A stretch of 20,000 nucleotides of DNA from an uncultured virus (IMG/VR IMGVR_UViG_3300020050_007563) (taxonomy: Duplodnaviria; Heunggongvirae; Uroviricota; Caudoviricetes): IMG/VR virus record IMGVR_UViG_3300020050_007563. One strand, given 5' to 3'. The notes beneath the pieces are model-generated. The model did not search any database. It worked only from the letters and a program-made list of their open reading frames with translations, and was not told the DNA's origin. The translations under genes and the position numbers were made by a program. Each line of letters begins with the position of its first letter. Position 1 is the stretch's first letter. Below, one piece after another: positions 18,200 to 19,998 of the stretch.

Positions 18200-19300
18200 A
18201 TGGATCGTTTTGCAACCATGAAGGCGTGGCTCGCTGATGGGTCAGTGATCAATCGCGGTGACAAGGCCGTCGTCATTCCGGATGGGTATTCTGCCTCGGA
18301 AGGCGTATTCGATTACAAGGTCGGGACCGGGGACAAGTCCTTCCGAACGCTCCCATTTGAACCAGGGAGGGCATTCTTCGTGATCTCATCGTCTTCCGGA
18401 GGTGATGTCACCATTGCGAATGTCCCTCTTCCGGTCACATCCACCTCACTTGCTTTGGAGACCACGCAGGTTGATGTGAAGGATGCTGTGGAGCGATTCC
18501 AGTTCGATCTGTCTGGGAATCTGAAGACCACGGGCGGCGGGGGCGGGGTTGTTGATCAGGGGGCTCCGGGTCTGTTGGCATGGCCTGTCAGTGGCCCACT
18601 TACGGATGTGCAGTTAAGGGCTGCGGCTGTTCCGGTCAGCACCACCGCCCTTCCTCTACCTACTGGAGCAGCAACAGAAGTCACTGCGCAGCAGATCAGT
18701 GACCGCGTAGACCTGACCAACACCCTGGTCGGCAATATGTATGCTGGCGTCAGCAACGCCGATATGCGCTTTGCCACGCAAGAGGTTCGGGATAAGCTCA
18801 TAGTGGCGCCAGCCACCGAAGCCAAGCAAACGCAACCCGGCGTGGATATCGGGGACGTTACCATCAACAATGCCTCGGGTGCGGATGCCGTGAACATACA
18901 GGACGGAGGGAACTCCATCACGGTGGATGGGGCTGTGATGGTGTCTAACGCATTGGACCTTTCCGTCACTGCCGTGGGGACAGCCGGTGCGGCGGTGACG
19001 GCCACACTGCCCGCTGTCGCTGCTAGTTATCATCTGATCTCCTTCATTGAGATCACCATGTATACCACTGCTGCTAGGACAGGTAACGCCACGCCTGTGA
19101 CCGTAACCTCCACGAATCTGGCCGGATCCATCGCGTGGACATTTCCGACAGCCGCCGCCATAGGAACTACTGCCATAAGGAACATTGACAGTGCGACACC
19201 GATCAGGAGTTCCGTCGTGAACACCAACACAACCATCGTCTGTCCAGCCACCACGTCCGTGATATGGCGCGTCAACGTCTTTTACCGAGCAGGAGCATGA
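18200..19300 (+). CDS. Phage fibre-like/structural protein, 366 aa
   Basis: Contains the VSGPLTDVQLRAAAVPVS, LPLPTGAATE and VNIQDGGNSITVDG segments seen in phage fibre-like proteins; Thr/Ala/Val-rich beta C-terminal domain. Confidence 0.6.
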   Translation: MDRFATMKAWLADGSVINRGDKAVVIPDGYSASEGVFDYKVGTGDKSFRTLPFEPGRAFFVISSSSGGDVTIANVPLPVTSTSLALETTQVDVKDAVERFQFDLSGNLKTTGGGGGVVDQGAPGLLAWPVSGPLTDVQLRAAAVPVSTTALPLPTGAATEVTAQQISDRVDLTNTLVGNMYAGVSNADMRFATQEVRDKLIVAPATEAKQTQPGVDIGDVTINNASGADAVNIQDGGNSITVDGAVMVSNALDLSVTAVGTAGAAVTATLPAVAASYHLISFIEITMYTTAARTGNATPVTVTSTNLAGSIAWTFPTAAAIGTTAIRNIDSATPIRSSVVNTNTTIVCPATTSVIWRVNVFYRAGA

Positions 19301-19998
19301 GAAAGCGCCGCACTTGGTGCAAAGCATTCGAGCATTTCTCCAATGGCTAAGGACGCTTCTGCCGACGGTCTCAAGTGCTTGTTCGCGTTGTAGAACTTCA
19401 TCCAGTCGCTTACCGCTGTGTTGAACTGCAATGACCGAACGCGCTTATCCATTGACTCTCGCAATGTGTTCACGTCCACGGCATCGCTTCCATTCTCACT
19501 CAGCCACGTTCGCATCTTGCGCAGGAATTTAGAGACGCCCTTGATCGAGCCGTCCCGCCAATCGCCACCTTCGGTGTAGGGTCCAATGAACATCAGGTGC
19601 ATCCTCAGATCGTCGGGTGCAAAGTCATCCGGGCTGATCACATTGCCGGTACTCTTGCTCATCTTGGAGCCATTCCGCGTGATCATTCCCTGATGCACCA
19701 CGCGCTTGAACGGCTCCTCAGCCGGAACAACACCGATGTCGTACAAGAAGTAGTGGATGAAGCGAGCATAGATCAGGTGTGCGCAAGCGTGTTCAGGACC
19801 GCCGACACACAGATCGACCTGCTGGTATTTGTCCAGGCCACACAGCGCTTCCGTGTTCGTTGGGTCACAGTAGCGAACGTAGTAGAAGCTACTATCGACG
19901 AACGTATCCAATGTGTCGGACTCTCCTTCGATCGGAATCGGGCATCCCCACTTGCGTTGTCGGCTCACGCACCAGTCCGTCAGGCTCTCCAGCCAGTG
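19282..19998 (-). CDS. leuS: Leucyl-tRNA synthetase, minimised form; 5' part outside the window
   Basis: Frame open to the window edge ([22 protein letters not shown]). Motifs [48 protein letters not shown] and FAP are all diagnostic of bacterial LeuRS. Confidence 0.9.
   Translation of the reverse strand, partial: [238 protein letters not shown]

Follow-up and report, generated by a model that had tools for sequence, protein, structure and literature searches.

The end of a 20,000-nucleotide stretch of DNA from an uncultured Caudoviricetes virus (IMG/VR record IMGVR_UViG_3300020050_007563; the whole stretch is hereafter called the window) carries on its minus strand, at 19282..19998, the 3' two-thirds (codons 190-427 plus stop) of what is probably an intact, selected phage gene for a leucyl-tRNA synthetase (LeuRS) of bacterial type. 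The encoded enzyme of 427 residues, half as large as is usual for a LeuRS, appears to be cut down to its catalytic core and would charge tRNA without editing. A first-pass annotation of the window had already described a phage-borne miniature LeuRS lacking several accessory domains. Here this mini-LeuRS is compared with its cellular counterparts, its family is delimited and the readings of its function are weighed.

The 238-codon frame is open throughout the window and its translation continues past the window end. Pfam places the 238-residue piece among the class I tRNA synthetases (PF00133, E 6.4e-15; PF09334, E 1.7e-09). The 5' 565 bases lie beyond the window end, and the 5' third of the gene was read only from the nearest virus record (hereafter G001; linear, 38,340 bases, 56% complete according to CheckV). 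G001 is 99.07% identical to the window over positions 1-13811 and 99.04% over 14168-20000, with one replaced segment between them, and its positions 6250-6968 are 99% identical to the gene piece. The full gene in G001 (L002 5685..6968) encodes 427 aa, has an ATG start nine bases past the stop of a small upstream open reading frame (ORF) and begins MSKCNYILVMFPYPSGDGLHIGH. Stops, frameshifts or a missing HIGH motif in the upstream part had been named as signs of a pseudogene; this part is free of stops in G001 and contains HIGH at residues 20-23, the CxxC...CxxC of ZN1 and two residues in the place of CP1. All five members of the 90%-identity cluster are intact, with 419-427 aa and a start of MSK or MDK. 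Between the window piece and the G001 protein 3 of 238 residues differ, and the nine changed codons comprise six synonymous and three non-synonymous changes; these are few, but their direction suggests purifying selection.

Global alignment with E. coli K-12 LeuS (860 aa) paired 424 positions, 178 of them identical, and located the missing segments. The N-terminal 30 aa of the E. coli enzyme (Ec 1-30) have no counterpart. Of the CP1 editing domain (Ec 225-418) 190 aa are absent and the two residues ES stand instead; the deletion junction lies at 19954..19998 on the minus strand, as do the junctions that follow. The CP2-region insert (Ec 434-485) has lost 49 aa and is replaced by IEG, at 19900..19941, and the leucine-specific domain (LSD; Ec 571-617) has lost 44 aa and is replaced by the tetrapeptide TRNG, at 19651..19692, after which comes the KMSKS loop (19651-19665). 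Three small gaps, together 25 aa, fall in three short stretches within Ec 691-742 of the helical domain. Finally, the 94 aa of Ec 767-860, which comprise the end of the helical domain and the C-terminal tRNA-binding domain (CTD), are absent; the C-terminus and stop occupy 19282..19326, FAP corresponds to Ec 764-766 and the protein thus ends inside the helical anticodon-binding domain. Four sequence details of the first-pass annotation are present in the window translation, the junctions WGCPIP-IEG-ESDTLDTF and QGMI-TRNGS-KMSKS letter for letter, as well as the stop ten residues past FAP and HWLESLT directly before DWCVSRQR. The domain losses read from them are upheld by the alignment, which puts the junctions at CP1, the CP2-region insert, the LSD and the C-terminal 94 residues, and the loss of CP1, left open as the 5' part fell outside the window, is confirmed by the two residues found in its place in G001.

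In spite of these losses the protein is recognized as a LeuRS. The best NCBIfam match is leuS_bact (TIGR00396) with 379.6 bits in four stretches, the next family being ValRS with 150 bits. The best match among PDB sequences is the LeuRS 3ziu (E 1.9e-84), followed by the LeuRSs of T. thermophilus, E. coli, N. gonorrhoeae and Agrobacterium, and no other enzyme appears among the top 17 PDB sequences. For structure prediction AlphaFold2 was given an alignment of 34 members, whose first row, P0003, equals the G001 protein in all but one residue. The model obtained a mean pLDDT of 88.7 and a pTM of 0.88, with disorder limited to residues 422-427. Foldseek returned as best hits two chains of 3ziu, the LeuRS of M. 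mobile (TMq 0.88-0.89, 33% identity), then other bacterial LeuRSs (TMq 0.82-0.87) and, further down, MetRS. As modelled, the phage protein has a bacterial-type LeuRS fold without the editing, leucine-specific and C-terminal domains. What remains as a core is the Rossmann fold with HIGH and KMSKS, the ZN1 zinc knuckle and the stem-contact fold, plus four helices from the bundle that binds the anticodon.

The catalytic motifs HIGH, known from G001, and KMSKS, seen in the window, are both invariant in all 34 rows of the family alignment. Papers are cited here by PMC identifier for the passages covered. For E. coli LeuRS the residues L41, H52, D80, E532 and H533 have been described as holding the adenylate and Y43 as a gate, W177 and R178 of the ZN domain as needed for activation, and N168, E169 and Q190 as contacts of the acceptor stem (PMC13454842). 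By alignment, the first six correspond to phage F11, H23, D51, E258, H259 and Y13, whereas W177, R178, N168, E169 and Q190 correspond to E146, R147, K137, A138 and Q159. Invariant in the 34 rows are Y13, H23, D51, E258, H259, R147 and Q159, together with K301, M302 and K304 of KMSKS (Ec K619/M620/K622); F11, at the position of Ec L41, is found in 33 rows, and the five other pocket and gate residues are identical to those of E. coli. Three of the four zinc cysteines are invariant as well.

The protein belongs to a large family that this analysis encountered almost exclusively in uncultured phages. A word-index protein search gave 7,988 matches at E up to 0.001 from 8,000 scored candidates of 234-748 aa, many of which must be other synthetases. 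The search for same-length homologues that had been proposed found 112 proteins of 408-440 aa among the 120 best matches listed, which are 58-100% identical to the query; the G001 protein is 58-83% identical to listed members. The eight length exceptions comprise two of 388 and 392 aa, probably cut, and six of 491-616 aa with N- or C-terminal extensions, among them a CoaE domain in P0057, a weak reverse-transcriptase piece in P0074 and the N-terminal extension of P0021 and P0027 treated below. The 34 aligned rows show a mean column identity of 67% with more than 100 invariant columns, and they stop a few residues past a conserved AP/MP motif whose proline, P417, is invariant.

A profile-guided scan of IMG/VR yielded 59 viral loci, mostly with near-full-length matches of 44-65% identity, on contigs of 4.7-608 kb; the family itself occurs on viral contigs from 13 to 608 kb in length, and 13 mini-form contigs exceed 200 kb. 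A single ORF of 398-445 aa was present in 49 of the 58 sources with a match, G001 included. The remaining loci show various deviations: ORF calls are over-extended in L014 and L027, no match was obtained in the filtered ORF set of L016, four viral contigs (L058-L061, positions 4974-6587) encode forms of 526-537 aa, L062 encodes a distinct CP1-less form of 541 aa with 31% identity, and L063 is a canonical LeuRS of 934 aa. In L052 (4950-6271) and L057 (4983-6264) the mini-LeuRS frame is split into two overlapping ORFs, which are either frameshifted copies or sequencing errors. These two split genes among 59 viral loci are what could be cited for a decaying pseudogene or an assembly artefact in the window; with the window frame open, five of five close relatives intact and of the same length, a single ORF in most of the sources, the many invariant columns and the confidently predicted fold, that explanation is very improbable.

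Among 50,697 GenBank phage records one mini form was identified, LR745206.1, an uncultured phage of 634,780 bp with a one-piece match of 61.9% identity; the other 45 matching records gave either two-piece matches of full-length type or weaker ones. No cultured phage carrying a mini-LeuRS was found, and megablast of window 18000-20000 against the same records gave no match. A separate observation concerns the 735,411-bp uncultured phage of LR756501.1 and LR756503.1, in which positions 191967-193463 hold a single-piece LeuRS-like match of about 499 codons and 30.9% identity. Judged from its sequence, this appears to be another reduced form, distinct from the mini clade.

The screen of cellular genomes covered 185,579 species of bacteria and archaea, each represented by a single genome, and gave 391 relatives, of which the best 80 were kept. 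These 80 are ordinary leuS genes matched mainly over residues 6-192, with 31-51% identity, and the mini form was not found among them: 60 of the 80 gave complete ORFs of 639-1158 aa, none near 420 aa. This bears on the other caveat of the first-pass annotation, a host leuS of the ordinary kind at the edge of a prophage, and equally on a mere fragment of such a gene in that place. Among the named database members the closest one, P0005, is labelled as coming from a metagenome-assembled genome of Flavobacteriales. However, the gene is embedded among phage genes in a viral record, being flanked in G001 by an HNH-endonuclease-like gene and a structural gene, the recovered cellular leuS genes have 799-1158 aa and are at most 51% identical over an N-terminal piece, and in the phylogeny a long stem sets the family apart as a separate clade. 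A host origin of this kind is extremely improbable.

The clade was delimited by a phylogeny of 87 rows and 420 columns, built with an IQ-TREE quick search with SH-aLRT as the only branch support. The rows comprise 22 mini forms, four other viral forms, 56 cellular LeuRSs including that of E. coli, and five MetRS-like outgroup sequences; 20 of the 80 cellular loci, which gave no complete ORF, ORFs above 1000 aa, 12 of the 34 aligned mini forms and the M. mobile LeuRS were left out. The 22 mini forms and two small-CP1 forms make up one phage clade of 24 rows (SH-aLRT 100) on a stem of 0.81, within which the mini forms group by themselves (SH-aLRT 88) and the protein of the window falls in a subclade of seven rows (SH-aLRT 100). 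With the MetRS-like outgroup, the phage clade lies within the bacterial LeuRS group and is nested in no sampled bacterial phylum. Small-CP1 forms are those of L058-L061, which retain at the bacterial insertion point a CP1 remnant of about 110 aa with the editing motifs TTKPET... and GYGTxYVMGVPNDDxRD, while the LSD and the C-terminal part are absent. In the tree they are the sister of the CP1-less forms, and since they keep a remnant of CP1 when the LSD and C-terminal part have already gone, they fit a stepwise reduction within phages. L062 groups with Pseudomonadota LeuRS (support 95) on a branch of length 1.5; because of this long branch, a second and independent reduction is only suggested. 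On the best reading of the sequences, the mini-LeuRS would be one phage-restricted clade that has spread between unrelated phages.

tRNA genes near the family were identified by ARAGORN within 5 kb on either side of the gene in the 59 viral loci. There were 168 tRNA genes in 21 loci, 57 of which are tRNA-Leu, located in 13 of those 21 loci; without L025, a duplicate of L024, tRNA-Leu accounts for 52 of 160. This share is about three times that expected from a set with one tRNA per anticodon, an expectation which is our own estimate rather than a computed control. With the duplicates left out, a long variable arm is present in 32 of the 52 tRNA-Leu genes and absent from the other 20, which measure 74-78 bases; the discriminator is A in 32 of 32 long-arm and in 18 of 20 short-arm genes. 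The short-arm genes occur in L006, L014, L015, L017, L019, L020, L021, L024 and L062 beside long-arm tRNA-Leu genes with which they often share the anticodon. Streptomyces coelicolor is known to have type I tRNA-Leu (PMC6614811), the LSD is reported to prefer tRNAs whose variable-arm loop is large (PMC3643597), and in the CTD one finds the contacts to the tRNA elbow and the long arm (PMC3561953). Since the phage enzymes have lost both LSD and CTD and arm-less tRNA-Leu genes adjoin them, the pairing is suggestive, no more.

Flanks of the mini-LeuRS gene in huge-phage contigs show another peculiarity. According to the ARAGORN calls, L014, L015, L018, L021, L023, L024, L044 and L049 contain Asn, Ile, Thr, Val, Met, Cys, His, Arg and Gln tRNAs of 82-91 bases with a long, Leu/Ser-like variable arm. 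They adjoin ordinary short copies with the same anticodon, and the discriminators of the two kinds agree (Asn G, Cys U, Thr U, His C).

Taken as a LeuRS, the enzyme would during infection activate leucine with ATP and transfer it to tRNA-Leu, with no post-transfer proofreading, and would either top up or replace the LeuRS activity of the host. As the G001 fragment contains no tRNA-Leu gene, the substrate of its enzyme would be host tRNA-Leu; for the relatives from huge phages, tRNA-Leu encoded by the phage could serve as well. The modules with which cellular enzymes read the elbow and the variable arm of the tRNA are missing, so that docking would have to depend on ZN1, the KMSKS loop and what is left of the helical domain. 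The selected, minimal and editing-deficient enzyme of the first-pass annotation agrees with the conservation of the family and with the absence of CP1; that it charges tRNA is what we infer.

Several results weigh against charging. The leuS_bact score lies below the equivalog cut-off of 548.4 bits, which is expected as half the model is missing. The position of Ec W177, loss of which lowers the kcat of activation 800-fold (PMC13454842), varies among the 34 rows (E 18, D 8, K 5, L 2, S 1), and the tRNA-contacting N168 and E169 are K and A in the G001 protein, with N 16, K 11, R 7 and E 23, S 9, A 2 in the family. With the pocket residues conserved and these three not, the adenylate pocket appears intact and part of the ZN-domain machinery described for E. 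coli differs. Deletion of the CTD abolished aminoacylation in both T. thermophilus and E. coli LeuRS (PMC3561953), and the mini family has no CTD. No tRNA gene lies nearby in 38 of the 59 viral loci, among them every locus whose gene content comes closest to that of the smaller phages, and the 38 kb of G001 contain no tRNA-Leu. The arrangement of tRNA genes in arrays makes the tRNA-Leu counts interdependent, and L024 and L025 are duplicates. Lastly, clustering of 921 ORFs from the 59 viral loci and G001 revealed no conserved partner gene, the most widespread neighbour family being confined to nine of 60 loci, which belong to a single group of related phages.

Some of these results would suit a LeuRS-derived enzyme that makes leucyl-adenylate and may bind tRNA, yet does not charge tRNA-Leu and has another role, such as sensing or regulation, transfer of leucine to a different acceptor or sequestering of tRNA-Leu. 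All three tRNA-handling modules are gone, charging is lost on CTD deletion in two cellular enzymes, W177, N168 and E169 are not conserved and the leuS_bact score is under the cut-off; moreover, the Sulfolobaceae LeuRS-I provides a precedent, as it binds tRNA-Leu and forms the adenylate but cannot aminoacylate (PMC9437257). Against it, tRNA-Leu genes are enriched beside the gene in the relatives, the family has kept KMSKS and ZN1 as well as Q190, which contacts the acceptor stem, neither a partner gene nor one for a different acceptor is conserved in the neighbourhood, and the LeuRS of M. mobile works in charging without CP1 and with a tetrapeptide for the LSD (PMC3643597). We consider a non-charging derivative rather unlikely.

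A functional LeuRS could alternatively need a tRNA-binding helper in trans, a phage or host protein or its own dimer, in place of the CTD that cellular enzymes require (PMC3561953). A candidate for an appended RNA-binding module is seen in P0021 and P0027, metagenome proteins of a subclade of their own that are 77% identical over their whole length; at the N-terminus both carry a conserved addition of about 165 aa, which includes a lysine-rich stretch. However, this extension has no Pfam match and no tblastn match in the window, G001 or any of the loci, and no neighbour family is common beyond one phage group. Dependence on a helper is thus improbable, and a charging, editing-free core enzyme remains the reading we prefer. 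In a bolder form, which we hold possible but doubtful, the mini-LeuRS would be fully active with a mode of tRNA docking unlike that of any cellular LeuRS, would constitute in huge phages a private leucine-charging system with phage tRNA-Leu (20 of 52 arm-less), and in the mid-size phage would take over host tRNA-Leu when the host LeuRS is shut down or attacked.

The carrier looks like a mid-size, podovirus-like phage. PHROGs and Pfam searches with 13 window ORFs detected only a UVR motif and an IS1595-type zinc ribbon, and the phage nature of the window therefore rests on G001, in which a portal (phrog_6547, E 1.8e-13; PF16510 P22_portal, E 5.1e-09) and a protein of 1,602 aa that matches the crAss muzzle over a short stretch (PF25731, 31 bits, cut-off 27) were identified. 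The C-terminal 1,194 residues of the latter are encoded by the window ORF at 1..3585. Together with membership in IMG/VR, these hallmark genes fit the phage-borne status proposed at first pass. The mini-LeuRS is the only translation enzyme seen in the 38 kb of G001. An HNH-endonuclease-like gene (L002 5006-5386) lies two genes upstream of it, and GIY-YIG endonuclease genes adjoin the mini-LeuRS in the huge-phage loci L017 (4214-4993) and L057 (6283-7017), 19 bases away. Such adjoining genes of homing-endonuclease type hint at how the mini-LeuRS gene moves between phages. On its other side the gene is convergent with a 366-aa ORF of no recognized family, with an overlap of 19 bases. All neighbours in G001 are singletons that do not cluster with any ORF of the 59 viral loci, from which we conclude that the gene moved between unrelated phages. 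Pfam gave no match for the proteins of 112 aa and about 100 aa encoded just after the gene in some groups, and Rfam at E up to 0.1 detected no leader, T-box or attenuator in L002 4000-7200, where small ORFs abut the start codon.

Other parts of the window show features of their own. Its plus strand from 1 to 11901 holds very large ORFs of 1,194 (cut at the window start), 253, 553 and 1,966 aa with no PHROG or Pfam match. Positions 13812-14167, the sole stretch that does not align to G001, are a replaced or hypervariable segment of 356 bases against 421 in G001 (12088-12508). At 17213-17285 on the minus strand (L002 8965-9037, plus strand) lies a tRNA of 73 bases (RF00005, 43.9 bits) with a six-base anticodon loop, AUCUAA, discriminator C and no encoded CCA; ARAGORN calls it tRNA-??? 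with a two-base anticodon, and it is the only tRNA-like gene in the 38 kb of G001. Read as U33-CUA-A37, it would look like an amber suppressor. Recoding of TAG in G001 was considered and rejected: with code 11 the coding fraction is already 91%, three of the 32 ORFs end in TAG, and treating it as a sense codon adds 618 bases, which gives no signal. Just downstream of this tRNA, an ORF at 16602-17168 on the minus strand encodes an IS1595-type transposase zinc ribbon (PF12760, E 8.9e-13); its 264-aa call overruns the tRNA and the true start is probably the Met near 17168.

The nearest known system is the LeuRS of M. mobile (PDB 3ZIU; PMC3643597), likewise of bacterial type, naturally devoid of CP1 and with a tetrapeptide for the LSD. 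In its case the linker is KEEIDGKIT and the tetrapeptide GKDG (PMC3561953, PMC3643597), compared with ES and TRNG in the phage. The M. mobile enzyme is a cellular protein of 637 aa. Beyond the position that aligns with phage residue 353 it extends for about 170 residues, against 74 in the phage protein, and thus retains a C-terminal part and the remainder of the helical domain, whereas its ZN1 segment lacks the cysteines kept by the phage family. With canonical LeuRS, as in E. coli LeuS and T. thermophilus 1H3N, the phage protein shares the residues of the adenylate pocket, besides HIGH, KMSKS and ZN1. The Sulfolobaceae LeuRS-I and Halobacteria LeuRS2 (PMC9437257) are additional LeuRS copies of unclear role in which the editing and C-terminal parts are damaged or divergent, but these are archaeal-type or full-length cellular proteins that are not miniaturized, and LeuRS-I does not aminoacylate. 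The engineered LeuRS urzyme (PMC9026127) resembles the phage protein in being a minimal catalytic excerpt of LeuRS; it is artificial and has about 120-130 aa, while the phage protein is natural, and its 427 aa still include ZN1 and a portion of the helical domain.

Synthetases of huge phages were described by Al-Shayeb et al. 2020 (PMC7162821), with as many as 15 tRNA synthetases in a single genome and a LeuRS tree in the supplement; the passages covered do not mention truncation or loss of the editing domain. Unlike those carriers, the present one looks podovirus-like and mid-size; it is known from a 38-kb fragment with one odd tRNA-like gene and no tRNA-Leu. No paper on a truncated phage LeuRS family was found in the literature, in which the supplementary text of PMC7162821 was covered in part. 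Already known are phage-encoded synthetases, LeuRS of huge phages among them (PMC7162821), and a CP1-less LeuRS in M. mobile. Given that cellular LeuRS is inactive without its CTD (PMC3561953), a natural, strongly conserved LeuRS of 427 aa that lacks it, and has neither proofreading nor an LSD, raises the question of the minimum needed to recognize and charge tRNA-Leu. New are a carrier that looks mid-size and podovirus-like and in which no tRNA-Leu gene was seen, the comparison with E. coli residue by residue, the tree that unites the family in one clade with its small-CP1 sisters, the absence of the mini form from the best 80 of 391 cellular loci and the association with tRNA-Leu genes, arm-less ones included. 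If active, the enzyme would be, to our knowledge, the smallest natural LeuRS; it would then offer a ready scaffold on which minimal or orthogonal translation systems could be built, and a case of an error-prone synthetase carried by phages. Its occurrence in a carrier that is probably mid-size, with no tRNA-Leu in 38 kb, implies that synthetase genes are not confined to huge phages.

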